A DNA stretch of 64,000 nt. Origin: Eledone cirrhosa. Taxonomy: Eukaryota. Position 1 is the first letter of the stretch. The number at the start of each line of letters is the position of its first letter. The position numbers and the translations under genes are program-made. The notes beneath the pieces are model-generated. The model searched no databases. It saw nothing but the letters and a program-made list of their open reading frames with translations, and was not told the origin of the DNA. The stretch lies in NCBI GenBank assembly GCA_964016885.1, contig OZ024745.1, positions 76,694,001 to 76,758,000 on the forward strand, given 5' to 3'. Positions 17,612-63,422 of the stretch are shown one piece after another.

Positions 17612-18885
17612 AATAAATGAAAGAGAGCCGAGCGGACTAGTCGGGTGTATTGATAAACTGGCCATAGAAACCATACATCGTCATAGGGTGGCGTAAGAGA
17701 TGAAAGAGAGGCGAGCGAACTAGTCGGGCGGTTTGATAAACTGACGATAGAAACCATAGTCATAGGGTGGTGTAAGAGATGAAAGAGAGCCGAGCGGACT
17801 AGTCAGGCGTGTGGATAAACTGACCATAGAAACCATAGTCATAGGGTGGTGTAAGAGATGAAAGAAAGCCGAGCGGACTAGTCGGGCGGTTTGATAAACT
17901 GACCATAGAAACCATAGTCATAGGGTGGCGTAAGAGATGAAAGAGAGTCGAGCGGACTAGTCGGGCGGTTTGATAAACTGACGATAGAAACCATAGTCAT
18001 AGGGTGGTGTAAGAGATGAAAGAGAGCCGAGCGGACTAGTCGGGCGGTTTGATAAACTGACGATAGAAACCATAGTCATAGGGTGGTGTAAGAGATGAAA
18101 GAGAGCCGAGCGGACTAGTCGGGCGGTTTGATAAACTGACGATAGAAACCATAGTCATAGGGTGGTGTAAGAGATGAAAGAGAGCCGAGCGGACTAGTCG
18201 GGCGGTTTGATAAACTGACCATAGAAACCATAGTCATAGGGTGGTGTAAGAGATGAAAGAGAGGCGAGCGAACTAGACGGTCGGTTTGATAAACTGACCA
18301 TAGAAACCATAGTCATAGGGTGGCGTAAGAGATGAAAGAGAGCCGAGCCGACTAGTCGGGCGGTTTGATAAACTGACGATAGAAACCATAGTCATAGGGT
18401 GGTGTAAGAGATTAAAGAGAGCCGAGCCGACTCGTCGGGCGGTTTGATAAACTGACCATAGAAACCATAGTCATAGGGTGGTGTAAGAGATGAAAGAGAG
18501 CCGAGCGGACTAGTCGGGCGGTTTGATAAACTGACGATAGAAACCATAGTCATAGGGTGGTGTAAGAGATGAAAGAGAGCCGAGCGGACTAGTCGGGCGG
18601 TTTGATAAACTGACGATAGAAACCATAGTCATAGGGTGGCGTAAGAGATGAAAGAGAGCCGAGCGGACTAGTCGGGCGGTTTGATAAACTAACCATAGAA
18701 ACCAGACATAGGGTGGCGTAAGAGGTGAAAGAGAGCCGAGCGGACTAGTCGGGCGGTTTGATAAACTGACCATAGAAACCAGACATAGGGTGGCGTAAGA
18801 GGTGAAAGAGAGCCGAGCGGACTAGTCGGGCGGTTTGATAAACTGACCATAGAAACCAGACATAGTCATAGGGTGGCGTAAGAGT
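17612..18885. repeat. 79-bp tandem repeat array (~16 copies)
   Basis: Unit gagatgaaagagagccgagcggactagtcgggcggtttgataaactgac(g/c)atagaaaccatagtcatagggtgg(t/c)gtaa. The anchor gagatgaaag occurs at 18013 and 18171, two units of 79 bp apart. Confidence 0.95.
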
Positions 18886-22156: not shown

Positions 22157-22200
<44 letters not shown>

Positions 22201-22414
22201 TTCTTTATTTACCATAAAGGCATAAAAAGAAGGGACAAATACAAAGGGGGAGTTTACATATAATCGAGTAAAAAGGGTGTAACATGAAAATAATCGAAAA
22301 TAACCTCAAAAGGGAGGGGACGTGATGGGGGTTGCACACACCCCCGAAAAAGTGTGCAATCCTTTGCCCGGGGAGCACATGGAGAAGGTGCTCCCCTCTC
22401 CTTTACTTCTTTAC

Positions 22415-25400
22415 CTACAGGATGGTATACAGAGAAGGCCCATTTACACGAGCCATTCTCGCCACTATCACCCACCTTTCATAAAACTGCCTGTGGCCAA
22501 GCACCTCTCTCTCCATTCTTATCCTTCTTCCGAAGTGATATCGGAAGAAGTAGACCAGACTATGGCTAGAGAGGAAGTTGCCTGACCTCAGACCTTTCAA
22601 TCGTGTCCACCAAACAACCTCTTTCAACATGGCTATTACGCACAGAAAAACCGCCTTTGCTTCCTTTGTGAAGAGGGGAGGCGGTTTGATTGTCATCACG
22701 GACTCGGCGGTCAATTTAATCGGCGCCACCCGCGACAGCAGTTGTTCGGCGTAGCCCCACAGATCAGCCACGCCCGGACATTGCACCAATGCGTGCGCCA
22801 CGGTTTCTTCGTGACGCACGCATCTAGGGCAAATCTTTTTTGAGGGATCCCTGCCCGGGCGCCCGTGTCTGTAGAGCCTCTCTCGAACGGGTAGAGCCCC
22901 TCGGTAGCACTGCCAGGCCAGTGACTTCTGGAAGTTGTCCATTGGTCCTGGGCCGAAAGTCCTACCGAACAGGCTGGCCAGTTCGTCTTCTTCCATGTCC
23001 AGCGACTCTCCAAGGGTGTCATCGCCCCTGCTAGCCACCAGCCCTCTATAGAATGATGAGGTGGATTCTCCACCGATGGCCCGGCCCGCTTGCCAGAGAG
23101 CCCTGAGCGCCTGAGCACACTCAGTGTGCCAGTCTCCCAGTTTTCCGGATCTTTGTTTGACCCAGGACTGTAGCTCGGTGAGTGAGACGAGTCTCGGAAA
23201 GGCTCGTTTCACGAACGGGGCCCACACCGGTTGACCAGTGAGGAATACCTGTAGGTGCCGTAGCCTTAATGCGTGCCTACGCATCATCAACCACGGCATC
23301 CCCAGCCCTCCTTTCGAAGGTTGTTGGCAGCAGATGGATCTTCTCACCATAGGAGGACGCTTCTTCCAAAGAAATTGGAAGAGCATGCGTTCCATGGTGG
23401 TGAGTGTTTCCTTAGGGCAAGGCACGACAGTCAGGCGGTAGTAAGTGACGGACGCTATGTAAATGTTCGCCACCTCCGCCCGGCCTTTTAGGGACAGCTT
23501 ACACTTGGCCCATTTCTGGGTTAGTGCAAACACCTTGTTCGTAACCTCGTTCCAGTTCTTTTCCACCTGGAGGTCCGGTCCAAACCAGACCCCAAGCAAC
23601 TTTACCGGGCCCTCCGTCCAGTGTCCGACGACACCGTCAGGAGGCATCGGTTTGCCTCTCCACGTTCCGAGTTGCAGCCCGATGGATTTTTCCCGGTTCA
23701 GTTTCGCTCCTGACAACCTTTCGTACTCCTCCAGTAAGGTACCGATCGCCTCGATCTCCGAGTCGGTTGATACCATTACTGTTACGTCATCGGCGTAGGC
23801 CGACACCGCTTTGCTCAATCCTGGTTCCAGGGGGATACCCTGCAACAACTCCAACTTCCTCAGTAAAGGCTCGAGAGTCAATACGTACAGAAGGGAGGAG
23901 AGAGGGCACCCCTGTCGAATGGATCGTGTGATTTCGAACGGCTTCGAAAGGTAGCCGTTCACCTTGATCCTAGAACAGATGTGGTTGCTATGTAGGGCAG
24001 TGATCCAGCCTCTGAAAACAGGACCGAACCCAGCCGCCGCTAGCACCGCATCCAGGTAACCATGGTCGACCCTATCGAAGGCCTTAGACTGATCCAAGTT
24101 GATCAGGGCCCCACCGAAGCCGGGTTTGTTGCCAACCCTCTCTATGATGTATCGCATGAGGTGGAGGTTATCGTGAATGGACCTGGATGGGATAGCACAT
24201 GTCTGCGCATCTCCCACCAGGCCACCCACGACAAGCGCCAACCTCTTTGCTAACACCTTGGCCAAAATCTTTAACTCTGTGTTTAGCAGGGTTATGGGCC
24301 GAAAATTATTTATACTATCCCCCTTTTTCTCGTCCTTCCTCACCAGCGTGACTACGCCCTTGGCTACAGAACAAGGAATTCTCCCGTTCTGCTGCCAATT
24401 GCAGTAGACCGCTTCGAGGAGTTCGGAGAAGAAGACCGGCATTGCTAAATAAAGTTCGTAAGGTATACCATCGAGACCTGGAGATTTGTGTCTGCTGCAT
24501 TGGCTCAGCGCATCTCCGATCTCATCAGCCGAGATTGGTCCCTCGCAGGACTCTGCCTCTTTGTTCGAGAGACGCGGCAGGCCGTCGAGGTATGGACCGA
24601 AATCCACGCCCCGGCCCGGACCCTCGCCTCCCCCGAACAATCGGGCAAAGTGCTTTTGAAAGGCCTCGCACATCTGCTTAGGCTCCCGGATCACTCGTCC
24701 ATCTTCGTCTTGCAACGACCGGATGGTGGATCGATTTCCACTTTTAGCTTCTGTCACGCGGGCCCATCCAACGGCTTTGGCCCCCTCATTACCTAGAGCA
24801 CGTATTTTACTTCGAATGACGCAGCCTTCATGCTTTGCATCGAAAAACTGGTTCAAGGCCGTCCTCGATGCCAGCACTCTGGCCACATCTTCGCTCTTGA
24901 TTGCCTCTTCTAATTTACCTGTTAATTCTTTCTCGTTTCTATTCCTATTGGCAGCTAACATCTTGCTATAACTTATTGATTCTGTTCTAATCTCTCTTTT
25001 GAGAGATGCCCACCATCGGTTGTTGACGATTGCACCCGTCAACCTCTCCTTAACTAATCTGCTAATCCGGTTTCTGTAAGCCTCTTTTGCCGGTAAAGAC
25101 AAATTAAGTTTCCAGTAACCGGGACCCTGTCTATGTGTTTTCTCGAGATTGACCACGCAGGTCACTAATTTGTGATCCGTGTAGCCAACCGTGCGCATTT
25201 CTGGACAGCTTAATATGTCCCTATCCTTACTTCTAACTAAGAATCTATCTAAGTACGATCTAGATTGACCACTGTGGTTTCTCCAAGTCCAGGTAGGCAC
25301 AGTTGGAAAATCTAGTCGATATCTATCGACCAAGTTAAAACGGTCGAGTAACCCCTTGAGGCTGTTACACCCCCCTCTATTAGGACATGCTCCTGCATAG

Positions 25401-25852
25401 TCCCAACGTGCATCTAGGATGTCATTCCAATCCCCCGCTAGAAGCAGGGAACGCGACGTTCCCAGAAAAGTCTCCAAACGCTGGAAGAAGTCGGGCCGTT
25501 CAGCTCCGAAAGGGGAGTAGACGGCGACCAGTCTCAAGGCCGCACTTTCACTACTGCCAACGTCTAGCACCAACAAACGACCCTCCGGGTCCGAGTGCAC
25601 AACCTGTACGGCAAGACCCAGGTGTTTTTGCAGCAGCACGACAACCCCACCCCCACCTCCAGGTTGACAGAGAGATGCATGCACCTCAAAGTCATCGAAG
25701 GTGGGGGCCAGCTGCCGCATGACGCTGATTCGAGTCTCACAGATAACCATTACATTTATACTACATGACCTGAGGTCATTTAGAAGCTTTGCTTGCTTCC
25801 AAGTTGAGCCCAGGCCACGTGCATTCAAACATCCTACTCTTAACACATCCAT
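22415..25852 (-). CDS. Tx1-like ORF2: APE endonuclease + reverse transcriptase + C-terminal zinc finger
   Basis: APE motifs LNARGL, ICET, GDWN, YLDRFL, TDHK. Linker GPGYWKLN. RT motifs SPGLDG, FRPITLLN, LDQSKAFDRV, RQGCPLS, YADD. C-terminal CPRC..EETVAHALVQC. Confidence 0.95.
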   Translation of the reverse strand: MDVLRVGCLNARGLGSTWKQAKLLNDLRSCSINVMVICETRISVMRQLAPTFDDFEVHASLCQPGGGGGVVVLLQKHLGLAVQVVHSDPEGRLLVLDVGSSESAALRLVAVYSPFGAERPDFFQRLETFLGTSRSLLLAGDWNDILDARWDYAGACPNRGGCNSLKGLLDRFNLVDRYRLDFPTVPTWTWRNHSGQSRSYLDRFLVRSKDRDILSCPEMRTVGYTDHKLVTCVVNLEKTHRQGPGYWKLNLSLPAKEAYRNRISRLVKERLTGAIVNNRWWASLKREIRTESISYSKMLAANRNRNEKELTGKLEEAIKSEDVARVLASRTALNQFFDAKHEGCVIRSKIRALGNEGAKAVGWARVTEAKSGNRSTIRSLQDEDGRVIREPKQMCEAFQKHFARLFGGGEGPGRGVDFGPYLDGLPRLSNKEAESCEGPISADEIGDALSQCSRHKSPGLDGIPYELYLAMPVFFSELLEAVYCNWQQNGRIPCSVAKGVVTLVRKDEKKGDSINNFRPITLLNTELKILAKVLAKRLALVVGGLVGDAQTCAIPSRSIHDNLHLMRYIIERVGNKPGFGGALINLDQSKAFDRVDHGYLDAVLAAAGFGPVFRGWITALHSNHICSRIKVNGYLSKPFEITRSIRQGCPLSSLLYVLTLEPLLRKLELLQGIPLEPGLSKAVSAYADDVTVMVSTDSEIEAIGTLLEEYERLSGAKLNREKSIGLQLGTWRGKPMPPDGVVGHWTEGPVKLLGVWFGPDLQVEKNWNEVTNKVFALTQKWAKCKLSLKGRAEVANIYIASVTYYRLTVVPCPKETLTTMERMLFQFLWKKRPPMVRRSICCQQPSKGGLGMPWLMMRRHALRLRHLQVFLTGQPVWAPFVKRAFPRLVSLTELQSWVKQRSGKLGDWHTECAQALRALWQAGRAIGGESTSSFYRGLVASRGDDTLGESLDMEEDELASLFGRTFGPGPMDNFQKSLAWQCYRGALPVRERLYRHGRPGRDPSKKICPRCVRHEETVAHALVQCPGVADLWGYAEQLLSRVAPIKLTAESVMTIKPPPLFTKEAKAVFLCVIAMLKEVVWWTRLKGLRSGNFLSSHSLVYFFRYHFGRRIRMEREVLGHRQFYERWVIVARMARVNGPSLYTIL

Positions 25853-25885
25853 GTGGGCGGCAGAGCCAAAGGAGAGTGTAAAGAC

Positions 25886-27763
25886 CTACCTTTCCGCTTC
25901 CCGGGGTTCGGGTTGCACGACTTCCATGGGGTCGGGGTTGTTGGGTGAAGGGGTGTCTTGTGGTGGTGTGGGGTCGTCGGTGTGTGGTGGGGTTGGGGTG
26001 TTTGGAGTTGTGTTGGGGAGGGGAAGGGGAGGGGGAAAGCTTTTTAGTAGGACGCGGTTTATGGGTTTGACAGAGGGTGGTCCTACGTCCTCCTTAAAAT
26101 CCTTTTTTAGTTTTTGGTAGAGGTTCATTGGGATTTTTATTAGTTTTAAATGTGGGTGGTTTTCTGATGAAACAAAGTTTACACCTTCGGTTTGTACCGA
26201 AGGATTATTGTATATGAGTTCATTTAATTTATTATTGTTTCTGTTGATGTAAGTATAGTGTAATGTCTTTTTTTCCGATGGTGTGAGTGTTTCGAAGAGG
26301 GGAGGGGCAGGTTTGGTTTTGTTTGTTGCTGGAGGGGTGTTTTCTGTTTTGTTAGATTGTGTTGCGATTTGGGTGGGGGTTGTTTGTCCTTGTGTGTTTT
26401 GCACATGTTTTCTTTTTTTCCTTTTAATCTGTCTGAAGGACTCCGTTTCTTCCTCCGAATTCGTTGGGTTATCTTCAGTGTTGGAGGGAAGAGGTATGTT
26501 TGCTGGTAATGTTTCCGTGTTGGTTTTCTTTGTGGGGGAGATGGATGTCACTATGTTAGACTGTGTTGTGTGTTGTGTCTGCGGTGGTTGTGTTGTTTTA
26601 TTGAGTGAGAGGTTGGGTGGGCCTGTATTTTGTTTTGGGGTAATGTGTTGTGACTGTTTGTGTTGTGGTGGTGTTGTGGTGTTACTGAGGGACGGGTTGG
26701 GTGGGACTGAGTTTTGTTGTTTGTTTATCTGTTGTGGTGGTGGTGGTGGAGCTGGTGTTGGTAGCAGGGTTTTCTTTTTGTTGAGTTGGGGACAAGCGGC
26801 CTTCAGGTGCCCTCTGCCTGCACAGATATGGCAGGACGGCCTTCTCCCCTCCACGCTAATGTTTATATACCCGTGGTCCTCTAATAGGATTCTGTCGGGT
26901 ATTTGGGCGATGCGTTCAGGCTTCATTTGTACTACCAGCTCTATACCTGTTCCACTGAACGCATTGCCTGTGGTTTTCCCAATGGAAATCACGTTGTCAT
27001 TCACTGGATCGATGAAGCCAGCTATGAGCCAGCAGTAGTCCACATCTGGCATCATTGCATCCAGCCATATGCGTTGAGTTTTTTTTCCCATATAAGATGG
27101 ATAAAAGGTGAAATTTTTCGAACGAATCGGTGACAAAGCACATTTTTTTGCCGCCGATTCGTTCTTCATGATGATTGCTAGGCTTCCATACAGTCTGTCT
27201 TTTCTTATGAAAGTTGTTTCATTCAGTACTTCTGCGAGTACTGTTTTGATATCTGCTTGAGAAGGCTGTTCAGGTTTTTTTGTACTGTTGTTGATGGTCC
27301 GAAACTTGACCGTTCGGCTTTCAATGTCTTTCGTGAATTCTTGAGGCATTTTTACCAATAAAATACCATTCTCACCTTCACTTATGTATTGTTTTGCGTC
27401 CGTGATCCTTCGTACCACATCTGAAATGTTTTCCGCTATATAAGTCAAAGATTTCTTTGTTTTCTGTGCAAATGAAATCTTGTCGTCTGCTTTGTTTTCT
27501 GATATGATGTTATTTTCAACTGTTATTTTTTTGTTTGTTGTGTCTTTGTTTGTGTTATTAGTATTGTCATGCAATTTTTCAAATTTTTTTTTCCCGTTGT
27601 TTTCGTCATTTAATTTTTCCTCCGCAGATTCGTCCGTTTTTATTTTCATTTTTCCTTCCTTCTCTATGACGTTAGTTGGGAAGGAAGGGAGGACTAAAGC
27701 GTGCGAGCTTACAACTCTTACCGCTGTCCCCCCACCACTATTTTCGTTCGCTGCGTTTAACAT
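25886..27763 (-). CDS. Tx1-like ORF1 (gag-like RNA-binding protein with one CCHC zinc knuckle and a Pro/Thr-rich region)
   Basis: VEGRRPSCHICAGRGHLKAAC fits C-x2-C-x4-H-x4-C. It lies directly upstream of ORF2. Confidence 0.88.
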   Translation of the reverse strand: MLNAANENSGGGTAVRVVSSHALVLPSFPTNVIEKEGKMKIKTDESAEEKLNDENNGKKKFEKLHDNTNNTNKDTTNKKITVENNIISENKADDKISFAQKTKKSLTYIAENISDVVRRITDAKQYISEGENGILLVKMPQEFTKDIESRTVKFRTINNSTKKPEQPSQADIKTVLAEVLNETTFIRKDRLYGSLAIIMKNESAAKKCALSPIRSKNFTFYPSYMGKKTQRIWLDAMMPDVDYCWLIAGFIDPVNDNVISIGKTTGNAFSGTGIELVVQMKPERIAQIPDRILLEDHGYINISVEGRRPSCHICAGRGHLKAACPQLNKKKTLLPTPAPPPPPQQINKQQNSVPPNPSLSNTTTPPQHKQSQHITPKQNTGPPNLSLNKTTQPPQTQHTTQSNIVTSISPTKKTNTETLPANIPLPSNTEDNPTNSEEETESFRQIKRKKRKHVQNTQGQTTPTQIATQSNKTENTPPATNKTKPAPPLFETLTPSEKKTLHYTYINRNNNKLNELIYNNPSVQTEGVNFVSSENHPHLKLIKIPMNLYQKLKKDFKEDVGPPSVKPINRVLLKSFPPPLPLPNTTPNTPTPPHTDDPTPPQDTPSPNNPDPMEVVQPEPREAER

Positions 27764-27995
27764 TTCTGTTAGACGATTGAAATTTTTTACACAAAATTTT
27801 TTTTAAAACAGGTTATTTCACCTCTAGGAGGGGTAAAGATGAGCTGACCCACCGCCTGACAGTTCAGACGGAGGGTCAAGCTACACAATTGTATCAAAAT
27901 TAAGTTTGAACTCACAAAATTTCCTCAATAAATTTGAACAAAACTTCTGTGCGAAGTGAATGACATCCACACTGTAGAACAGACGACAGCTAGAT

Positions 27996-28037
<42 letters not shown>

Positions 28038-28080
28038 GAGCGAGAGAGAGAGAGGTGGGTAGATAGATAGATAGATAGAT

Positions 28081-31000
28081 TGATTTATTATTAGCCACAA
28101 GGGCGCACAAGAAAGGGAGACAAAACAAAGACATGCCGGGGATTTTACATACAATCGTGTAAAAAAAAAATAAAACAAACAATTATAACAATCGAAATCC
28201 CCAATAGGGGGGAGGCACCACAAATGGGTTGTTTAATACCCCGTCGATAGAACAACCCTCAACTTCAGGAGCGTGTTGTACAAGTGATCCTTTCTTCCTT
28301 TTGCTCTCTTCTTTAACCTACAGGCTATAAACAGAGAAGGCCCAATCACTCGGCCATTTTCGCTTCATTCACCCACCTTTCAGTAAATTTACTGGAGTGC
28401 AGTGCCTCTCTCTCCACTCTGATTCTCCTTCTAAAGTGATACTTAAAGAAGAGAATCAATTGTTGTCCGGAGAGAAAGGCATCTGTCCTCAGTCCTCTCA
28501 ATCTCGTCCACCATATAACCTCTTTCACCATAGCCACTGTACAGAGGAAAACCGCCTCTCTTTCATTTTTGAAAGAGGCTGGCGGTTTGATCCTTACTAT
28601 GGACTAGGCAGTCAACTGGATTTGTCCCATACGCGACAGCAGTTGTTCTGCATAGTTCCACAGCTCGGTTACGCCCGGGCAGTGTACAATTGCGTGCAAG
28701 ACGGTTTTAATGTCCTGCTCGCATCTTGGACACGTCCTCTTGGAAAGATCCCTGCCGGGGCGTCCGTGCCTGCAGATCTTGTCTCGAACGGGCAGAGTTC
28801 CTCGGTAGCACTGCCAGGCCAGAGACCTCTGGAAGTTGTCCATAGGTCCCGGGCGGAAAGTCCTACAGAACAGACTGGTGAGCTCATCGTCTTCGACGCC
28901 CAGAGTCTCTCCGAGCACGTCGTCGCTCTTGTAACGTACAATCCCTCTATAGAATGCTGAAGTGGAGTCTCCACTGATTGCTGTGCCCGCTTGACAGAGG
29001 ACAGTGAACGCCTGGGCGCATTCAATGTGCCAGGCGCCCATCTTCTTCGTTCTTCGCTTGACAGAGGACAGTGAACGCCTGGGCGCATTCAATGTGCCAG
29101 GCGCCCATCTTCTTCGTTCTTCGCTTGACCCAGGACTGCAGCTCCGTCAGCGAGACAAGTTGTGGGAAGGCCTGTCTCACAAATGGTGCCCACACCGGTT
29201 GGTCGGTGAGGAATACCTGGAGATGCTGTAGCTTCAGCGCATGTTTGCGCATCATTAGCCAGGGCATGCCCAGCCCTCCGTTGGAAGGGTGTTGACAGCA
29301 GAGGCATCTCCTCACCAGTGGAGCCTGCTTCTTCCACAGGAACTGGAAAAGCATTCGTTCCATCTTGGTGAGGTATTCACGGGGACAAGGCACGACAGTC
29401 AAGCGGTAGTAGATGACGGACGCTATGAAAGTGTTCACCACCTCCGCTCGACCTTTCAAAGACAGTTTGCACTCTGCCCACTCTGGGTGAGCACAAATAC
29501 CTTGGCCATGACCTCGTTCCAGTTTTTCTCCACCTGGAGGTCTGGACCGAACCAGACCCCGAGCAATTTCACCGGTCCTTCCGTCCAGCGTCCAACGACG
29601 CTGTCGGAGGGCATCGGTTTGCCTCTCCACGTTCCGAGTTGCAAACCGACAGACTTGTCCGGGTTCAGTTTTGCTCCTGTGAACCTTTCGTATTCCTGTA
29701 GTAGGTTGCCAATTACCTCGATTTCCGAGGTTTTCGACACCATTACTGTCACGTCATCGGCATAAACCGACGCCGCTTTTCGCAGTCCCTAAAGGGATGC
29801 CCTGCAAAAGCTCCAACTTCCTCAGTAGTGGCTCTAGGGTCAATACGTACAGAATGGAGGAGAGAGGGCATCCCTGTCGAATGGAACGCATTATTGCGAA
29901 CGGCTCTGATAGGTAGCCGTTCACCTTGACCTTCGAGCAGAAGCTGGTGAACATCGCCTTGATCCAGCCTCTGAAAACGGGACCGAAACCGGCCGCCTTG
30001 AGAACCGCTTCCAAATATCAATGGTCGACCCTATCGAATGCCTTAGACTGATCTAAATTGATCAGAGCCCCACCGAAGCCGGGTTTACACCCCATCCGCT
30101 CTATAATGTATCGCACGAGGTGGAGGTTGTCGTGTATGGACCTGGTCGGGATTGCACACGTTTGCGCTTTCCCTACCAGGTTTTCGACGACAAGCGCCAG
30201 CCTCGTTACTGGCACCTTGGCCAAAACTTTTAACTCTGTGTTGAGCAGAGTTATGGGCCTGAAATTGTTTATTTCGTCCCCTTGTTCTCGTCTTTCCTGA
30301 TCAGCGTTACTACGCCCTTGCCTGCAGAACTGGGAATTGTCCCGTATCTCAGTGGCTGTGATCGGTCTTTCGCAGAACTCGGCGTCCATGCTCGGGAGAC
30401 GCGGCAGGGCGTCGAGATATGAACCAAAGTCCATTTCCCCGTTCGGTGCACCGTCGTTCTGCTCAAACAGTTGCGCAAAGTGCCACTGAAAGGCCGCGCA
30501 CATCTGCCTGGGGTCAAGTAGCACGCGTCCGTTTTGGTCTTTCAAAGACCGAATCGTGGACTTGTTGCCACTTTTCGCTTCCGCCACTCGGGCCTAGCTA
30601 ACAGCTTTTGCTCCATCGTTTCCTAGAGCACGTGATTTACATCTGACCACGCAGCCTTCGTGTTTCGCGTCCAAGAACTGGTCCAGTGCCGTTCTCGATG
30701 CTAACACTCTAGCTGCGTTGCCACTCCTAAGCGCCTCTTCTACCTTGGCTACTAGTTCTGTTTCTGATTTGTTTTTCTCTAAAGCTAATTCTCTGCTAAA
30801 CCCTATCGATTCTACTCTAAATGCTCTCTTGAGAGAGTACCACCATCTATTGTTGACGATGGCTCCCGTCAACTCTTGCTTAACTAATCTACTTATCCGT
30901 TCACTATAGGCTTTTCGTGCCGGCAACGACACGTTCAGCTTCCAGTATCCGGGTCCTTGTTTATGTATTCTATCACGGCTGACTATGCAGACGACTAGTT

Positions 31001-32849
31001 TGTGATCTGAATAGGCAACCATGTGCATTTGTGGACAGCTTAACATCTTGTCCTTCTCTCTAATGGAAACCCTATCTAGATACGATCTAGATGTCCCGCT
31101 GCGGTTTGCCCACGTCCACTGTGGTGCAGTCGGGAAATCTAGTCGATATCTATCGGCCAGTTGGAATTGGCCATTTAGATTTTTGAGGCTGTTGCACCCC
31201 GCTCTACTGGGACATGCTCCCACATAGTCCCATCTTGCATATAGGATAACATTCGGGTCCCCCACTAAAAGCAAGGAGTGAGACCTTCCCAGAAAAGACT
31301 CTAGCCGCTTAAAGAAATCTGGCCGCGATTGTGATTGCCCGGTCGGGGCATAAACGGCCACCAGTCTGAAGGCTCCACCTCCGATACTGTTCACGTCTAG
31401 GACTACCAGTCTACCCTCCGGGTCCAAGTGTACTTGCTGTACTCCGACGTTCAGGTTCTTCCGAAACATAACAGCCACTCCACCTTCACCTCCCGGCTGA
31501 CAGAGAGATGCGTAGTCATTGAAGATGGGGGTTAGTTACTGCCTGTTGTGGATCGTGGACTCGGTGATGGCTATTACATCTATACCGTGTGACCTAAGGT
31601 CGTTTAAAAGTTGGCCCTGTTTCCAGGGCATCCCTACGCACGCACATTCACGCTTCCAACTCGTAAGTCAGCCATGTTGGTGGAGAAGAGTTGGCGAAAA
31701 GGACGAAAGGTGCTCTTACCTTTTCGTTTCCTGGAGATCGGGTTGTTTAATCTCTATTTCAGTTCTTGTGGGGTGGGGAAACATTTCAACAGGACATGGT
31801 TTATTGGTTTTTGGCAGGGGTTGCCAACGTCCTGTGAAAACTGTTCTTTCAATTTCTGATAGGTTTCTATCGAAACCCTTATTAGTTTTAGGTGTGGTTG
31901 AGAGTCTGCTTTGACAAAAAATTCCCCCTCAGTTTCCACTTTGGGGTCCTGTGAGATGACCTCAATCAAATTTTTGTTGTTGGTGTTGATGTATGTATAT
32001 TGTTGTTTTTGTTTTGGTTGTGTTGTTTTAGTTTGTTGTTCGTCTGCGAGTTTTCATTTTTGTGTTTGGGGTGGTGTTGGTGTTTGTTTTGTTGGTAGGG
32101 AGGTTTGGTTGTGGTGTTGTTTGTGTTGTTGTTTGTGTCTGTGGTTGTGTGTTGGTGTTGGTGATTGGAGTTTTGTGGTGTCTCTTTTTTTGTTTTGGGG
32201 ATTTCCGAGGCTCTTCTTCTTCTTCACTTAAAGAAGGAGGAGCAGCCTCATCTGTTGAATAATCATCATCAGGAGTGTCGGGTAGGGGTATGTTGTGTGG
32301 TGATGGTGTTTCGGTGTGTATGTTTGTGGTAGTGTTGGATTGAGTGGGGTGGGGTGGGGTGGGGCTGTGTTCTTCAGGGTTGCTGTCTGTGTTTTTACTG
32401 TAGTTTGTGGTTGAGTGGTTGTTTGTTTGGGTGTGTTTGCTTGTTTTGTGTGTTGTTGTTGTTGTGGTGGTGGTGGTGATTGTTTTGGTGTTGGTGTTGG
32501 TAAAAGTACTTTTCAAAAAAATTTGTTTGTAAAGGGCAGGAGGCTTTTAGGTGTGATGTGCCTTGCACATCAAAAACAGTGTGGCTTTCTAGTTTCAGTT
32601 ACAATGTTAATGTAGTATTGGTTGTTGACCAACACTCTTTCGGGGATTTTGGAAATTCTTTCTGGTTTCATTTGTATCAGAATTTCCAAATTTGTCCCTG
32701 CCCACCCTTGTCTGGTCGATTTCCTGACCGAAAGATTTGTGTCACTTTCTGGCTCTATGAACCCTGCTAAGATCCACCAAATGTTGATGTTTGGTGGTAT
32801 GTTATTTATTTAATTTTTGTGTTCTTTTTCCCATGTAAGTAGGGAAAAG
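28081..32849 (-). mobile_element. Tx1-like copy B, 5'-truncated in ORF1, with frameshifts, deletions and a 67-bp internal duplication
   Basis: Fragmented ORFs 28346-31478 align by eye with copy A ORF2. ORF1 remnants lie at 31716-32849. gatagatagatag marks the truncation junction (32850-32862). Confidence 0.9.
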
Positions 32850-33680
32850 GATAGATAGATAGTATTCAATGTAGCTATATTTTTTATGATTTAGTTTGAA
32901 TGTGTCCATTGCTCATGCAGTGCTGTGACAGTGGTTAGATTGATGCGGCTGAGGTTCCGATTCAAAATTTATCTTTATGTCTACTAATAAAAAATATGAA
33001 TAGCATGGGATTTCCAAGCTGTTACTCAAACTGGAGGATAAGTAATTGTTTCTACTTTTGGCACAAGGCCAGCAATTACCCAGTGCATTACTGGTAAGGA
33101 TAAGTAATGAGCACTGGGGTTAGTCTGGTGCCTGTAGAGAGAAATATGGTATGAATTACAACAGGAGAGAATGAAAATACGCCATGCTGGCTTGACTAAC
33201 GTTATGACAACGATAGAAAGAGAATACTGAGAGGATGTCGTATCTGTGAGCCAGGGGTTGAACTGCGAGAGAGTTTATAATTATCTGGGTGAGTTGCTTT
33301 TAGAAGGACTCATAAATAAATGTATGTGTAACAGCAACATTGTCCTAAATCTAGGTGTTATCTGGTCTCGACGGGGAAAGATAATCATTAACATGAAGTT
33401 TTTGTTATGTTATGATGTTATGAATGCGAGAGTGGCAGGTTAGATTCTCAGAGATGCTAATACTTTATATATATATATATAAAAAGCAAAAGGGATATTT
33501 AATTTGTTGGTAATTCAACAAATATATATGTTTATAACTGATTCGAAGCACTCAACGGATTTTCTGGAGTATAATATTCAATGATATTAAATAAATGGAA
33601 ATTATATTTCCTATCCAGGAAAAACTTGAACTGTTAAGATTTTCTTCCTGGATATGTCAATATTTATAAAACAAACTTTG

Positions 33681-33741
33681 TATTTTATCTGATGAGAGCA
33701 TACCAAAGTTTTGGTACCCTTGAAATATATATAATAGAATA
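33681..33741 (+). ncRNA. Type I hammerhead ribozyme motif (Penelope-type, palindromic helix III)
   Basis: TATTTTAT-CTGATGA-[GAG..TACCAA agtt TTGGTA..CTT]-GAAA-TATATA-TA-ATAGAATA. Helix I is 8 bp with one G-U pair and the core is intact. Confidence 0.75.
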
Positions 33742-33780
33742 AATATGATTTTATAAATATAATTTCCATTTATTTAATAT

Positions 33781-33827
<47 letters not shown>

Positions 33828-34288
33828 TGGATGAATACCTCAACAGGTACTATGTACTTGTAGAAATATGCAAGTTGTTTATAATATTTGTGGTTCAATG
33901 GTACTAATTCGAGACACCAGAACAATATAAAAAGTAGCGGAGCAAGCGGTTATCAAACAATTCTCTAAATAAATTAAAAAATGACAGGTCATTTACATAA
34001 TTATTTCTACTTTAGGCACAAGGCCAACAATTACCAGTATATTACTAGTACTTTATTTTATCGACCCCGTAAGGATGAAAGGCAAAGTTAACCTCGGCGG
34101 GATTTGAACTCAGAATGGCAAGGGCCGTAACTCTATGCGTCAAAGCAAGGCGTCCGACCCTCTACCAATACTGCCAATCCACCGACCTGTTCTGTTGCTG
34201 TTACCGACGGTTTCATCATTCCAAAAGATTGGAAATCCAGAGAATTTCCAATGGAAAGAAATTAATCTTCAGACAGCCTATTTCCACA

Positions 34289-35020
<732 letters not shown>

Positions 35021-35186
35021 TTGTTTCGACACACGATTTCAAATCAAAAACTTCGCAAAACAAATATATATATAATAATAATAATAAATGTGAAGACTAA
35101 AAGCCAAAGAGAGCTCGATAAGGATAATATATATATAAATACATATAAAAACCGTAGAACAAATATTTATTCAAATAACAGATTAA

Positions 35187-35237
35187 AGTTTAAGCAAAGA
35201 ATCGCTGCTTTCACCCTTAACGGGATCTTCCGAAACT
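35187..35237 (-). ncRNA. Degenerate type I hammerhead motif
   Basis: Minus strand reads AGTTT-CGGAAGA-TCCC gttaa GGGT-GAAA-GCA...TGC-TT-AAACT. Helices I-III form, but core U4 is replaced by G. A partial copy lies at about 45340-45388. Confidence 0.55.
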
Positions 35238-35384
35238 AAAAAGAGATTGATTTTTTTTTTTCGTTTCAGAAGACACCGTTTTGGGTGAACTTTGCTTAGG
35301 GGGAGTTTGGTGGTAATTGATATAGAGAGGAAGGTTGGCAGAGTGTGTTGTATATTAGATATAAATTTCTATTTATTTGCCACC

Positions 35385-37532
35385 AGGGCATCAAAGATTG
35401 GGACAAATACAAAAGGGGGAGTTTACATACATTTAAAAAGACGTGTAAAAAACATATAACAAATTAAATTTAACAATCGATGTCCTTAATAGGGAGGGGC
35501 GTTGACATGGGTCGCCCCCTCCCCCCGAAAAAATGTGCAACCCTCCTCACAAAGAGCGGGTGCTTCCTTCCTCTTCTCATTCTTCTCCTCTCTCACCTAC
35601 AGGCTGATATAGAGAGAGGGCCCATTCACTCGGGCCATTCTCGTTACTTTCAACCACCTTTCATAAAACTTGCTGGGGTAGAGCACCTCTCTCTCCATTC
35701 TAATCCTTCTTCTAAAGTGGTACTTGAAAAAAAGGACCAGTTGTTGGCCGGAGAGAAAGGTGTCTGACCTCAGCCCTTTCAACCTTGTCCACCATACAAC
35801 TTCTTTCGCCATGGCTATCACACAGAGGAAAACCGCCTCTCCTTCGTTTTTGAAAGGGGGAGGCGGTTTGATCGTGACAATGTTCTCGGTGGTCAACCGG
35901 ATTGGTCCCACCCGCGACAGTAGTCGTTCCACATAGCCCCACAGGTCAGCAACGCCCGGGCAGTGTACGAATGCGTGTGCGACGGTTTCTTCGTCACGTA
36001 CGCATCTCGGACAGATCTTCTTCGAGGGGTCCCTACCCGGGCGCCCGTGTCTGTAGAGCTTGTCCCGAACGGGTAGAGCTCCTCAGTAACATTGCCAAGC
36101 TAGGGACTTTTGGAAGTTGTCCATCGGTCCTGGGCCAAACGTCCTACCGAACAGACTGGCCAGCTCATCTTCCTCCATGCCCAGAGCCTCTCCGAGAGCG
36201 TCGTCGCACTTACTGCGCACCAACCCTCTATAGAATGTTGAGGTTGAGTCTCCACTGATTGCCGGATCCGCTTGCCAGAGGGCCGTGAGCGCCTGGGCAC
36301 ATTCAATGTGCCAGACGCCCACTTTTCTCGGTCTTTGCTTGACCCAGGATTGCAGCTCGGTGAGTGAGCCGAGTCTCGGAAAGGCTCGCCTCACAAACAG
36401 GGCCCACACCGGCTGACCGGTGAGGAATACCTGGAGGTGCCGTAGCCTTAATGCGTGTCTACGCATCTTCAGCCACGGCACCACCAGCCCTCCGTTCGAA
36501 GGGTGTTGACAGCAGATGGATCTTCTCACCAAAGGAGCCCGCTTCTTCCAAAGAAATCGGAAGAGCGCGCGCTCCATTTTGGCGAGTGTTTTCTCTGGGC
36601 AAGGCACGACGGTCAAGCGGTAGTAGATGACGGACGCTATATAAGCGTTCGCCACCTCCGCTCGACCTTTCAGGAATAGTTTGCAATCGGCCCACTTCTG
36701 TGCGAGTGCAAACACCTTGCCCGTTACCTCGTCCCAGTTTTTCTCCACCTGGAGGTCCGGTCCGAACCAGACCCCGAGCAGCTTCACCGGTCCTTCCGTC
36801 CAGCGTCCGACGATGCCGTCGGAGGGCATCGTTTTGCCCCTCCACGTCCCGAGTTGCAAACTGACGGACTTGTCCCGGTTCAGCTTGGCTCCTATGAACC
36901 TTTCATATTCCTCCAGTAAGGTGCCGATCTGCCCGATTTCCGAGGCGCACGACACCATTACTGTCACGTCATCGGCGTAGACCGACACCGCTTCCGTAGT
37001 AGTGGCTCGAGAGCCAGCACATACAGGAGGGAGGAGAGAGGGCATCCCTGTCGGATGGATCGCGTGATTTGGAACGGCTCCGAGAAGTAGCCGTTCACCT
37101 TGACCCTCGAGCAGGTGTTGCACCTGTGCATTGCAGCAATCCAGCCTCTGAAAACGGGTCCGAAGCCTGCCGCCGCGAGCACCGCATCCAGGTACCGATG
37201 GTCAACTCTATTGAACGTCTTAGATTGATCCAATGTGATCAGGGCCCCACCAAAGCCGAGTTCGTTCCCTACCCTCTCTACGATATATCGCATGAGGTGG
37301 AGGTTGTCGTGTATGGACCTGGACGGGATTGCGCATGTCTGCGCTTCTCCCACCAGGTTCCCGACGACAAGCGCCAACCTCTTCGCTAACACCTTGGCCA
37401 AAATCTTTAACTCTGTGTTTAGCAGAATTATGGGCCTGAAGTTATCTATGTCATCCCCCTTGTTCTCGTCCTTCCTCACCAGCGTGACTACGCCCTTGAT
37501 CACAGAACTGGGAATTCTCCCGTTCTGTTGCT
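35385..37532 (-). mobile_element. Tx1-like copy C, 5'-truncated within RT
   Basis: ORFs 36964-37503, 36083-37123 and 35597-35932 are homologous to the C-terminal half of copy A ORF2. The 3'UTR resembles that of copy A. Confidence 0.92.
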
Positions 37533-41320: not shown

Positions 41321-41719
41321 TTTCTTTTAATTCTTCTGATAAAAACGATGGTCTTCGTACAATGATCAGATATTGAGTAAGCACAATACATGAACACAAT
41401 TTTTTCTTCAATTATAATCAAATTAGGTTATAATTAGATGCTTAAATGCTCCTATGGTATATGATACTGTAAATTGTATGTTTACTAAATTTTGCAAAAG
41501 ATTACACAAAAAAAACCCCCAAAAAACAAAAATTTTATTTCTATCGTAATCAAGTGTGCTAAACCTATATTGTTTACATTCTGTGTTTTTCTACGGATGG
41601 TCAGAAATAACAAAATTGCCATGGTGATATCCATGGATGAAGTATGCGACAAAACTGGTCGATGTTCCAAAATAGAACATTGCCCAGAAAATCACACCTG
41701 CCATATTTGTACGGAACCC

Positions 41720-42976
41720 GAAAACTCGTTGTTTACCTTGACTTTGCTAAGGCTTTTAATTCTGTGCCACACAAAAGACTTATGGTGAAACTCTCTACAA
41801 TGGGTGTGAAGGATGGTCTTTTTAACTGGTTGAAATCCTTCATTCTCAGCCGAAAAGAGGTAGTCACAGTTCTAGGACAGCATTCTTCACCATATGAGAT
41901 GTCATCTGGTGTGCCACAGGGGTCTGTTCTTGGTCCCCTTTTGTTTGTTGCATACATTAATGACATAGATGCCAACTTAAAGAATGCCACAGTACTTAAA
42001 TATGCAGATGACATCAAGCTGTACCTTGAAATCAAAAGGACAGATCCTGAAATCTATAACTCTTTCCTACAATCAGACCTGGACACAATGCAGCAATGGA
42101 TCACAGACTGGCAACTGAAGCTGGCTGTGGACAAGTGTACCACCATGCATTTTGGGAGGAAAAATCCAGCGTCCACATACTCCCTCCACAATACTGATAT
42201 CAAGAAGTCCTCTTGTGAACGTGACCTGAGCATTACTGTCAGCAGCGATTTGCGTTGGACAAAGCACATCTCTAAAATTGTCAAGAAGACCGAGGGTGTC
42301 TTGGCATCACTCAGAAAGACCTTTGTTAGCCGCTCTCCAGCCATCTATTTAAAGCTGTATACAGCTATGGTACGACCACACTTGGAATTCGCATCATCAG
42401 TCTGGAACCTCTATTTTGCTCAGAACATTGACCTCCTGGAAACTGTTCAGAGACGTGCAACCAAGCGCATACCCTCCATCAGACACCTACCATACTTTGA
42501 GCGCCTTGCTTCCCTGGGCATGGATTCATTGAAGCTCCGACGTCTGGCAATGGACTTGGTAAACACCCACAAAGTTATTAACCATTTCGCCAACAACCCT
42601 GAGCACTTTTTGATCTCCATGTGTCTAACACACGTGGACATGCCTACAAAGTCAGAAAACAGCACAGCTCCCATGACTTTCGGAAACATTTTTTCACACT
42701 TAAAGTTGCTGAAGCATGGAACAAACTGCCTGCGTCAGTTGTTAGCTGCCGAGACACTGCATCCTTTAAAACTCTCATGCTTCCCGAAATTTGCCAAAAC
42801 TACACCTGACGTTCCCCTTCCATACACATGCACACATGTGTATATCATGACTCATGCTCTGTTCATTTTCCTGACGTTTGTACATTACCCTATGTACTAT
42901 ACATACACTTTTGATGAGTTGTAGTGCACCTGAGCACTGTACACAATATTTTCATTATTATCATTATTATTATTAT
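41720..42976 (+). mobile_element. 5'-truncated CR1-like LINE (RT C-terminal half)
   Basis: VYLDFAKAFNSVPH, SGVPQGSVLGPLLF, YADD, VRPHLEFA, VQRRATK, and TRGHAYK after a frameshift. Ends in a (TTA)n tail at about 42955-42976. Confidence 0.9.
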
Positions 42977-57601: not shown

Positions 57602-59704
57602 ATGGCTACGAAAAAGAATTTTCATAGGTCACTCCCACTCTTTCCGTCTTCTTCTTCCTCAATCGTCACTACAGCAGAGAGAAGATTGTCTCCCCCCCCC
57701 TTCTTTAAATGTGTCTCTCTCCCTCCCTTCTCTTTCGCAAGCAACGACAGAAAAGAAAAGTCTCGTGCAAAGCGTGCAAGATTTCTCCACGACGACGACG
57801 ACAACGACGAAACAGGTGTGCGGGAAATACGAAAACCCATTTCATTCGTCTGACGTCAGGAATAATAGCAGTAGCAGCCGTAATAACAACAGCAACAGTG
57901 ACAATGAAAACAACAGTAGCAGCCGCAACAGCATCACCAGCAGCATAAACAACAACAGCATTAGCAGCAGCAACACCAACAACAACCACAGCAACAGCGG
58001 CGGAGGCAGTAGTCGTAGTACCTGCAGCAACAACAAAAGTAACAGCAGCTCTGACGACAACAACAACAACAGCAGCAAAGAAAAACCAATCTCGTTTGCA
58101 GGTATCGCGAAGAACCTGGAAACAATCCTCATAACAAATGAGGAATTAGAGGAAGCGAAGAAAATGGTGACAAAGACTGGACACCGAGCAATCTGCAAGG
58201 CAGCGGAAAAATTTTTCGAAACCCAACAGCACTGTACGGTCACATACCGTACAGTAAGTACAAAATCCCGTAGGGTTGAAAGAGCCACAGAGGCTCAAAT
58301 ACAAAAAGCCTTGGGGTCTGTGTGGCAGCGGAAAACGCACATCACCCGAGGCAAAAAAAATATGCCACCGTAGACGTACTTTTTGCCACACCCCCAGGAG
58401 GCAAAGGCTCAATCCGTAGTGACCCTAAGGAGCGAGGAAATGGTGTTGGTGCCCTCCTACTGCGGGCAAAAAATTGTGAGGGTCAAACTGACCCACGTCC
58501 CCCCGGGATGGCCCCTTCTTGGCTGGCCGCGTCTGTCCTCGTCGGAATCGAGGACAAAACAACTGTACTGCAAGTACAGAAAAAAGTAAGAGAAGATTGG
58601 GTCGGCACCTCCATTGAGATGTTAATCCAAACCAACCAGGAGTGCATCGAAGCTATCCCGGATGTGATAGACTTCGATAACGGCACTCAACTTCCCATAA
58701 GTGTTGAGGGCAAACGCCCGAAATGCTTTCGCTGTGGATCGAAGACTCACCTCAGGGCCTTCTGCAACGAGAAGAGCCTGAGAAAGGAGAAAACCACCCT
58801 CCTTCCGAAACCGGCTCCACGGCTACCAGCAACAGGACAAGCGGCAACCAGGAACGATAGGTCCGTGGCACCCATACCCACGCCACGGAAATCAAAAACA
58901 GCAGCAGCAGTGGAAATATTAACAACAACAACCGCAATACCAAATGCAGCTGCAACAGTGACTCCAGTGCAAACATCACCAACAACAACAAGTGAAAGAG
59001 TGGAGCTGGTACCCCTCCCCAACCTCACAGAATCAGACATGGAGTGTGAGGTGGGAGAGGGATGGCAAAAGGTCGTAAGAAGGCACAAACGCAGAAGCAG
59101 CGCATCGTCACCTTTGAAAAGGGAGGAAAGAAATGAGAAAAGGGTAAAGTCTACTGCAAAGAGACTCACAGCAGCAACACCACCAACACCATCACCACCC
59201 ACACTAGCACCACCATCACCACCGGCGACAACCCCACCGCCAACAACACCTTCAACACCACCACCACAAGCACCAACATCGCAAACACAACAACAAAACA
59301 CACACACACAGCAACAACGACAAGAAAATAGCAGAACCACACCCCACACCCAGAAAAACAAATGCACGGCAATAAATACACACAACAAGAAACTAATGAC
59401 TTACATAATTGAACACACAGACATTTCACAACACGACTACATAATACCAGCACCAATCAAAACGCCAACTAACATAAGACTGCTAAAAATAGCACAGAAA
59501 CAATACACAAACATTAAAACGAAATTCCCCAACGCAGTTGGTGATTTCAGGGACCTAGGAGGAACTATCAATCGAAGAGTATATTCGGACATACTCATAG
59601 AAGAGCTGACGACCAGCTGAAGGGACGATTCAACGATCCCTTCACCAGACGATCAAGTGAAAAGGGATGGAAAAACCATCCCTCCTCTACGAAAAGTACG
59701 GTAA
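57602..59704 (+). pseudogene. Copy D ORF1, disrupted by frameshifts and a premature TGA at 59618
   Basis: ORF pieces 57711-58373 and 58322-59620 are homologous to copy A ORF1 (VEGKRPKC knuckle). The frame stays open past the TGA to CGG TAA at 59699-59704. Confidence 0.75.
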
Positions 59705-59739
59705 GTGGACTTTCCCATCTTTTCCACTCTATTTTAAAC

Positions 59740-62700: not shown

Positions 62701-63146
62701 ACAGGCATGGAGGTGCCGTCAGCCGGGCATGTCCGAGATGCGCGCAGGGCGACGAAACCGTCCTGCACGCACTCGTCCAGTGTCCGAAAATTGCTGACTT
62801 GTGGGTTTATGTCGAACACCTGCTGTCGCGTTTAGGACGGATCCAGCTATCATCTGAGTCCATCGTGAGGATTGCCCCACCCTCCTCCTTTAGCCGAGAA
62901 GGGCAGGCAGTTTTTATCTGTCTGGTGGCCATGGCGAAAGAGATAGTATGGTGGACACGTTTGAAAGGGCTGAAGACGAGCACTTACCTCTTCGGTGATG
63001 CTCTGATTGACTTTTTCAAATTTCATTTGAAAAGAAAAATCAGAGTAGAGAGGGAAGTGCTCTCTTCCCAGCATTTTGTTGAAAGATGGGTGAGAGAAGC
63101 AAGAATGGCCCGAGTGAATGGGCCTACTCTGAGTATATATCTGTAA
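59740..63146 (+). pseudogene. Copy D ORF2 (APE-RT-ZnF) with one frameshift near 60950-60985
   Basis: The 415-aa and 720-aa pieces are colinear with copy A ORF2. Confidence 0.9.
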
Positions 63147-63422
63147 ATTAAAGGTGGAAAACTGGGAGAGGGCACTTGCCTTGGTGGTCAGGGTCATTGT
63201 GGCCTTTTACTGGGCTTTCTCCACAAACTTTCTCCACAAATCTGGGCTTTCTCCCCCTATTGGGGAATTTTTCATTGTTATTTTTTGTTACATCCTCTGT
63301 TTTTGTTTTTTACACGCAGAAATGCCCATTTGTACCGTCCTGTATTGTCCTGCACTGTCCTTAATGTCTACTTTATGTAAACCCTTGTGGTTAATAAAGA
63401 AATCATTATTATTATTATTATT

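Follow-up and report, generated by a model that had tools for sequence, protein, structure and literature searches.

Two-ORF elements in the window

The window, the whole stretch of 64,000 nucleotides analyzed here, contained three two-ORF LINEs with a retained ORF1 end (elements A, B, and D) and a 5'-truncated element C. The features are listed below, with a slash marking each predicted splice position.

22157..22200, minus strand: element A, (ATCT)n repeat run, tail or target microsatellite
22201..22414, minus strand: element A, 3'UTR and predicted last exon, with G TAA and purines at its start and AATAAA at 22209-22204
22414..22437, minus strand: element A, putative acceptor, pyrimidine tract plus CTGTAG/G (TAG is the ORF2 stop; rank 1/256 AG by our own score)
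22415..25852, minus strand: element A, ORF2 with APE endonuclease, RT, and zf-RVT, forming the main part of a predicted 3475-nt intron
25853..25883, minus strand: element A, pyrimidine-rich spacer from the donor to the ORF2 ATG
25884..25892, minus strand: element A, putative donor AAG/GTAGGT, overlapping the ORF1 stop (predicted intron start 25889; rank 1/278 GT, one tie)
25886..27763, minus strand: element A, ORF1 (Met to TAG, ~625 aa, CCHC knuckle, C-terminus ...REAER)
28317..28340, minus strand: element B, putative acceptor CTGTAG/G at the ORF2 stop
31714..31722, minus strand: element B, putative donor AAG/GTAAGA (GTAAGT in other B-family copies)
35596..35619, minus strand: element C (5'-truncated), putative acceptor CTGTAG/G at the ORF2 stop
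59698..59706, plus strand: element D, putative donor ACG/GTAAGT at the ORF1 stop
63141..63146, plus strand: element D, ORF2 end CTGTAA, without AG (common to all 17 D-type ends)
63295..63320, plus strand: element D, T-tract followed by ACACGCAG/A in the 3'UTR, a candidate replacement acceptor (CAG at 63317-63319)

The preliminary description had placed donors in A, B, and D at 25889, 31719, and 59701, each made of an Arg codon plus stop, and CTGTAG/G at the ORF2 ends of A, B, and C (22415, 28318, and 35597); all were confirmed. The sequence it gave for a join in element A also holds: the bases after the acceptor would finish the Arg codon and give TAA.

ORF2 matched the domains PF03372, PF00078, and PF13966 (the last with 26.9 bits in A against a cut-off of 27.5, and 34.2 in D). 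Its best relative of solved structure was human L1 ORF2p (E 3e-50), with R2 behind (E 2e-20). ORF1 had no Pfam match, and its C-x2-C-x4-H-x4-C motif was invariant across seven aligned ORF1s. A separate ORF1 with a CCHC knuckle is a feature of the Tx1 clade. By domain layout, an APE-RT-zinc finger ORF2 and a CCHC ORF1, we class the elements as Tx1-like LINEs of the L1 group; no named Tx1 reference was present among the 120 matches listed. Of the two clades, one had (ATCT)n 3' flanks and the other (ATT)n; in the L094 family the 3' flank was a single fixed sequence. Element A had ATCT runs on both sides, at 22157-22200 and, between B and A, at 27991-28084; such repeats may be tail or target. Two ORFs, the same ORF2 domain order, and microsatellite association are also known from the Tx1 elements Kibi, Koshi, and Keno, whereas splice sites at the ORF ends are not described for them in the accessible part of that report (PMC4494074). 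L1-Tx1 families were reported to be recently active in Octopus vulgaris (PMC13282606).

Splice-site motifs at the ORF ends

Conservation was assessed in 100 genomic copies chosen to span families, with ORF2 nucleotide identity of 68-97%. A strict donor was found at the ORF1 end in 90/100 junction windows compared to 0.4% of shuffled windows, and a looser donor pattern in 94/100 compared to 3.3%. Among the 260-308 sense GTs of each element, this donor was top-ranked in 19/19 representatives (seven with one tie), using splice-site scores that were ad hoc and not trained on the host genome. The donor motifs are not due to chance, and the conservation across families on which the earlier proposal depended was strong for the donor. 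Pyrimidine content at +7..+26 past the donor averaged 82% in 18 representatives.

The donor was present in three codon phases: phase 2, ending ORF1 with R-stop; phase 1, with GK-stop or GE-stop; and phase 0, in which ORF1 continues 12 codons beyond it (613 open codons in L229). The Arg-plus-stop arrangement described for A, B, and D represents only one of these three phases across families. The ORF1 stop, which could be TAA, TAG, or TGA, lay inside the predicted intron in all phases. The donor persisted with the ORF1 stop shifted to +5 or +36 and with an ATG distance of 25 to 51 nt; the positions flanking it diverged while it was kept, and between-family changes at donor +3 and +4 obeyed the donor consensus. 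Because the donor was kept through all three phases and with any stop codon, the RNA motif at the ORF1 end is the likely target of selection. Of eight distant LINEs whose two ORFs are arranged alike, seven lacked the motif. At the protein level, two of the three closest full-length matches to ORF1 from other sources carried the phase-1 signature at the C-terminus (P0124, ...DQGK; P0125 of Argonauta hians, ...PEGKS); protein searches with the ORF1 C-terminus yielded no match, as did the first metagenome scan.

The evidence for the acceptor was weaker than that for the donor. YAG formed the ORF2 end at 51/68 loci, the remaining 17 being lineage D, and purines made up 88% of the sequence after it. 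The stop AG was within the top 8 of ~260 AGs in 12/17 representatives and ranked 12-44 in the other five; conservation of the acceptor was moderate. By our own score it was joint-top of 132 conserved AG columns, tied with two coding-sequence sites. Since 34% of four-fold sites were at least 85% conserved, a kept TAG alone is unremarkable.

Lineage D had been noted as an exception, with ORF2 ending in CTGTAA and a nearby AAAG as the closest candidate. The ending was confirmed at 63146, but the AAAG is not a likely acceptor. Instead, a T-tract CAG in the 3'UTR was found in 17/17 TAA-ending copies versus 0/52 TAG-ending copies, and sister families had CAC or TAC at this position. The CAG is likely a replacement acceptor and, as it occurs in every TAA-ending copy, the caveat on the missing acceptor of D is resolved; the swap was a single evolutionary event. 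Across families, a stop was regained within three codons of the predicted join in 12/16 pairings (p=0.007 in a permutation that ignores shared ancestry, with a 3-codon cut-off set after the data were seen). The other four pairings, family B included, read through for 4-95 codons, and the join in lineage D would add ~19 codons.

ORF2 as a putative intron and alternative explanations

The motifs suggest that a fraction of transcripts is likely spliced from the ORF1-end donor to the ORF2-stop acceptor, or to the 3'UTR acceptor in lineage D. U1 would bind the donor; unspliced RNA would be the source of ORF2p and the template, and spliced RNA, whose stop would fall in the final exon, would be the source of extra ORF1p. 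The ORF1-only RNA would not be retrotransposed, since no ORF2p is made from it and ORF2p prefers its own RNA. We give this reading, in which ORF2 is removed as an intron in a regulated way to produce an ORF1-only mRNA that is not mobilized, a probability of about 0.5. Splicing and any effect on ORF1:ORF2 stoichiometry are here inferred from sequence. Two other structures were rejected: a mini-intron of 39-53 nt that would fuse the two ORFs, which B lacks and which would be expected to leave mobile copies, and a hairpin formed by codons of the ORF2 C-terminus (95% paired, no compensatory change, equaled by 500/500 shuffles).

Retroposed copies precisely lacking ORF2 had been proposed as a test of the idea, and none was found in any family searched, the searches covering precise junctions. 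The exact spliced junction of family A had 0 genome copies, against 598 counts of the unspliced form at the donor and 931 at the acceptor. The predicted exon start followed the donor in 0/85 copies without the +5 G (2182 copies have it), as judged from 34 inspected flanks and, for the rest, from five letters. Four further family searches gave 8, 14, 24, and 4 matches, all with flanks inspected and none spliced; one search gave 37 matches, of which 28 inspected flanks were not spliced and the other nine were unlike the predicted exon start. Two more junction searches in other families had 0 matches, and another had one match, not spliced. The single match L365 in one junction search was an unspliced point mutant. 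One additional genome search counted 572 unspliced copies. At one searched site the window copy carried a minority base, and its own sequence matched three copies. The 22414-25890 joint was not among 15 contig joints listed, with 181 more outside the listing, over 22200-27900 in four contig sets of unrecorded molecule type, in which rare forms are dropped; one contig of run X1, also of unrecorded molecule type, spanned the acceptor unspliced (22200-22684). These contigs and their depth figures weigh neither for nor against splicing. The earlier proposal is partly supported: the donor is strongly and the acceptor moderately conserved, but no spliced molecule was seen and no precise ORF2-less copy was found in the families searched.

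The main rival, which we consider rather unlikely, is that the donor binds U1 snRNP and is seldom spliced; U1 would keep the full-length RNA from being cleaved and polyadenylated too early, or affect its export, and the YAG would be merely Leu plus stop. This accounts for a strong donor, a weaker acceptor, and absent retrocopies. In 13/18 representatives an AATAAA preceded the donor by 225-435 nt, but AAT-AAA encoded only 8/42 Asn-Lys pairs in seven ORF1s. The HIV-1 major donor suppresses premature termination at an upstream site. U1 suppression of premature termination was also reported in Evade (PMC5580714). However, AATAAA occurred within ORF2 in only 4/18 representatives, leaving little downstream for U1 to protect, and the gain of CAG in lineage D and the stop matching across phases are left unexplained.

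It is distinctly unlikely that the donor is spliced mainly elsewhere, to acceptors inside ORF2 or in flanking host sequence, where the message would still be ORF1-only and ORF2-dead. At nt 415 of ORF2 (window 25437), in the endonuclease region, 17/18 representatives kept an AG that scored equal to the stop AG, but its codons immediately precede those of the catalytic GDWN motif, and its conservation may therefore be explained by coding. In the B-family copy L198, the donor was joined within one base of an AG/G in the endonuclease region; this is a single case, one base off and with microhomology, and the flanks inspected held no recurrent join to any acceptor. The least probable of the three rivals is that the motif serves translation, as a signal to terminate ORF1 and reinitiate at ORF2, or was inherited without function, its likeness to a splice site being incidental. 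The families are related (ORF2 median nucleotide identity 73%), Arg plus stop readily yields AG-G-TAA, and no splice product was seen. Against this stand the survival of the motif through the shifts in stop and ATG distance, the between-family changes that track the donor consensus, and the distant LINEs without it.

Relation to known systems and meaning

HAL1 (half-L1) elements are genomic, non-autonomous, and ORF1-only; they resemble the predicted product in joining ORF1 to the 3' end without ORF2, but precise ORF2-less genomic copies were not found here. In the Ty1/copia elements Evade and BARE1, a conserved intron yields a dedicated short GAG mRNA for the abundant structural protein (PMC5580714), as predicted here for ORF1. 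Both belong to the LTR elements and have a single gag-pol ORF with a short intron, whose splicing generates the stop and is linked to early termination (PMC5580714), whereas the octopod elements are non-LTR with two ORFs, the stop pre-exists unspliced, the predicted intron comprises the whole of ORF2, and the usual 3' end would be retained. Human L1, also an L1-group LINE with usable donor and acceptor sites, gives rise to SpIREs and SpORF2, whose splices start in the 5'UTR with ORF2 retained; retrocopies of such splices occur (131/6609 full-length L1s), and the splices were termed detrimental dead ends (PMC5860796, PMC2896524). In contrast, the octopod donor lies at the ORF1 end, is apparently selected, would remove ORF2, and has left no retrocopy. 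In our literature search, splice-made GAG mRNA was known for Ty1/copia and ORF2-removing splicing was not found for LINEs; supplements, Repbase/Dfam entries, and subscription papers may describe such sites.

The excess of ORF1p over ORF2p is usually ascribed to inefficient translation of one bicistronic RNA (PMC9115989), and splicing, if it occurs, would be an alternative route to it. We see roughly even odds that an octopod LINE lineage keeps its whole reverse-transcriptase ORF as a facultative spliceosomal intron, under selection across phase shifts and an acceptor replacement. Such a LINE would need splicing to balance ORF1p and ORF2p, would be convergent with Ty1/copia, and would run counter to the idea of splicing as purely harmful to LINEs. 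If the U1 explanation were true instead, the LINE would depend on a U1 site, which was likewise not found in the literature search. The donor-bearing element type has ~13,000 copies (14,264 endonuclease-start matches minus ~800 control matches), and thousands of near-consensus donors could influence host transcripts.

LINE copies in the window and their group

The window contained four related non-LTR elements: A was intact, B and D were broken, and C was 5'-truncated. ORF2 carried APE endonuclease, RT and zf-RVT domains, with human L1 ORF2p as its best solved relative; the closest named relative of ORF2 was from Argonauta hians (68%), and those of ORF1 were from Octopus species, so the host is likely an octopod. 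The elements are provisionally called Tx1-like. The group is large in the 3.0-Gb genome around the window, in which two endonuclease-start patterns yielded 4768 and 9496 matches, compared with 383 and 403 control matches. In family A, 598 donor versus 931 acceptor junctions genome-wide indicated that approximately 64% of copies extend to ORF1; for a LINE, this is a large share of near-full-length copies.

Elements often of different families lay head to tail approximately 5.8 kb apart, both in the window (22157–37530) and on contigs C1 and C4 of the searched genome (G000), and the ATCT tail of B directly preceded A. One fixed non-microsatellite sequence followed the 3' end of seven copies of one family (loci L094–L096, L120, L121, L144, L151), likely representing a specific target, e.g., another repeat; a target preference of Tx1 elements is reported in the available text of PMC4494074.

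Features in the window:
17617–18884: tandem repeat of 79 bp, 16 copies, 94% matches
22300–22400, minus strand: two apparent hairpins in the 3'UTR of A, spotted on visual inspection; other families contain look-alikes
22415, minus strand: acceptor of A, ending on the ORF2 stop
25889, minus strand: donor of A, overlapping the ORF1 stop
41641–42924, plus strand: open frame of 427 codons with weak similarity (E 3e-5) to the RT of element A; it likely belongs to another LINE family

The splice donor motif at the end of ORF1

All six splice motifs listed in the preliminary description were present at the positions given there, and in A the bases past the acceptor finish an Arg codon, followed by TAA. 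One hundred loci of 6.7 kb were hand-picked, non-randomly, for differing motif variants among the first 100 listed matches per endonuclease-start pattern (contig C1) and one further match list. A strict donor pattern was found in 90 of the 100 junction windows and 0.4% of shuffled windows, and a loose pattern in 94 and 3.3%, respectively; the six misses were five damaged copies and one chance match outside any element. Scored by pairing to a U1 consensus, the ORF1-end donor was the top of 260–308 sense GTs in 19/19 representatives (one tie in 7). Conservation of the donor across families, a check proposed in the preliminary description, was strong. ORF2 identity among 18 representatives was 68–97% (median 73%), and they split into two well-supported clades.

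The strongest point on the donor is its variation in phase. It lies in phase 2 (Arg plus TAG, TAA or TGA) in families A, B, D, L094 and L101, in phase 1 (Gly-Lys-stop or Gly-Glu-stop) in L100, L104, L112 and L124, and in phase 0 in L223–L229, where ORF1 continues 12 codons past it. Because it is kept across phases, neither the last codons nor the stop can account for the donor, and it is very probably a selected RNA-level site. Among full-length ORF1 relatives from elsewhere, two of the closest three, one from Argonauta, ended at the protein level in GK or GKS, as the motif would read when translated in phase 1. The donor was absent from seven of eight distant LINEs checked; the exception, metagenome locus L374 (26% to the query), carried GGG/GTGAGT and then the ORF1 stop (~1925–1940), resembling phase-1 families, and as one in eight may be a chance match.

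In L223 and L226–L229, ATA replaced the ORF2-start ATG and overlapped the ORF1 TAG, and ORF2 of L228 was open for 1140 codons despite this start, which suggests non-AUG initiation coupled to termination.

Acceptors, reading frame and genomic copies

The ORF2 end was found in 68 of the 100 loci (CTGTAG 47, CTATAG 4, CTGTAA 17). The proposed acceptor conservation held in part: an ad hoc score placed the stop AG at rank 1–8 among ~260 AGs in 12/17 representatives, but at 12–44 in five. The stop AG was joint-top of 132 conserved AG columns, level with two sites within coding sequence. Conservation was as high at 34% of four-fold sites, so the TAG by itself is weak evidence. More telling is a T-tract CAG located 158–178 nt into the 3'UTR in all 17 TAA-ending copies (D lineage) and 0/52 TAG-ending copies, where sister families had CAC or TAC. 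It ranked 1 and 2 as acceptor in the two D representatives and looks like a replacement of a lost acceptor, but counts as a single event.

The spacer of L109, L124 and L238 contained a branch-point-like TTTTAAC, a pyrimidine tract and, just 5' of the ORF2 ATG, a CAG that was the highest-scoring acceptor in these loci. At 34–38 nt past the ORF1-end donor it is too near that site; an upstream donor joined to it could give an ORF2-only RNA.

When each family's donor phase was paired with its own acceptor, a stop returned within three codons of the join in 12/16 pairings (permutation p = 0.007), among them all seven with a donor in phase 1 or phase 0; the pairings are related by descent, each phase was set by a rule applied to intact copies, L100 was entered by hand, and the three-codon cut-off was chosen after the data. 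The frame would continue for 4–95 codons in B, L109-type, L101-type and L231, and the D join would add 19 codons in 10/12 copies.

Retrocopies precisely lacking ORF2, suggested as a check in the preliminary description, were found in none of the families searched. In family A, no spliced junction was found genome-wide, against 598 donor and 931 acceptor junctions in unspliced form; of the copies matched by a multi-family pattern, 2182 had +5 G and 85 lacked it, and none of the latter ran on into the 3'UTR; and the remaining families yielded only point mutants, small deletions and unrelated sequence. In B-family locus L198 (~1500–1530), a deletion extended from the donor to one base beyond AG/G in the endonuclease region, and would be either a spliced retrocopy with one base lost or a microhomology deletion. 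Human L1 mobilises spliced RNAs (131 of 6609 full-length copies; available text of PMC5860796), whereas no such copies were seen here, which argues against a frequent splice leaving ORF2 translatable. An ORF2-less RNA would have to be mobilised in trans, so the lack of copies does not refute the model of an ORF1-only mRNA, but obliges it to include a strict cis preference.

Proposed splicing and its alternatives

On the most likely reading, with a probability of about 0.5, some of the transcripts undergo splicing that joins the ORF1-end donor to an acceptor at the ORF2 end or in the 3'UTR, giving an ORF1-only mRNA. The removable-intron proposal was partly supported, by the motifs and donor conservation, but no spliced genomic copy was recovered and the splicing itself is inferred. 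Motifs, phases, the D-lineage swap and the missing retrocopies were established; U1 binding, extra ORF1p and exclusion in cis would complete the model.

U1 might instead bind the donor without a splice that removes ORF2, an appreciably less probable reading. AATAAA occurred 225–435 nt upstream of the donor in 13/18 representatives, but inside ORF2 in only 4/18. It is rather unlikely that the donor is spliced to other acceptors, and slightly more so that the motif is a translation signal or mere inheritance.

Human L1 splices retain ORF2 and are regarded as harmful, as far as the available texts go (PMC5860796, PMC2896524), whereas the splice predicted here would remove it. An ORF2-removing LINE splice was not found in the partly accessible literature searched, which covered few subscription papers and few repeat databases, and 'splic' did not occur in the available main text of two octopus repeat papers (PMC13282606, PMC9115989). 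In Ty1/copia, a GAG-only mRNA is spliced, and U1 prevents early termination as well as driving the splicing (available text of PMC5580714). The LINEs are no member of the copia strategy and their spliced mRNA is predicted, but the strategy would work alike: the ORF1-only mRNA would have its stop in the last exon, and the unspliced RNA would make ORF2p and serve as the copied template.
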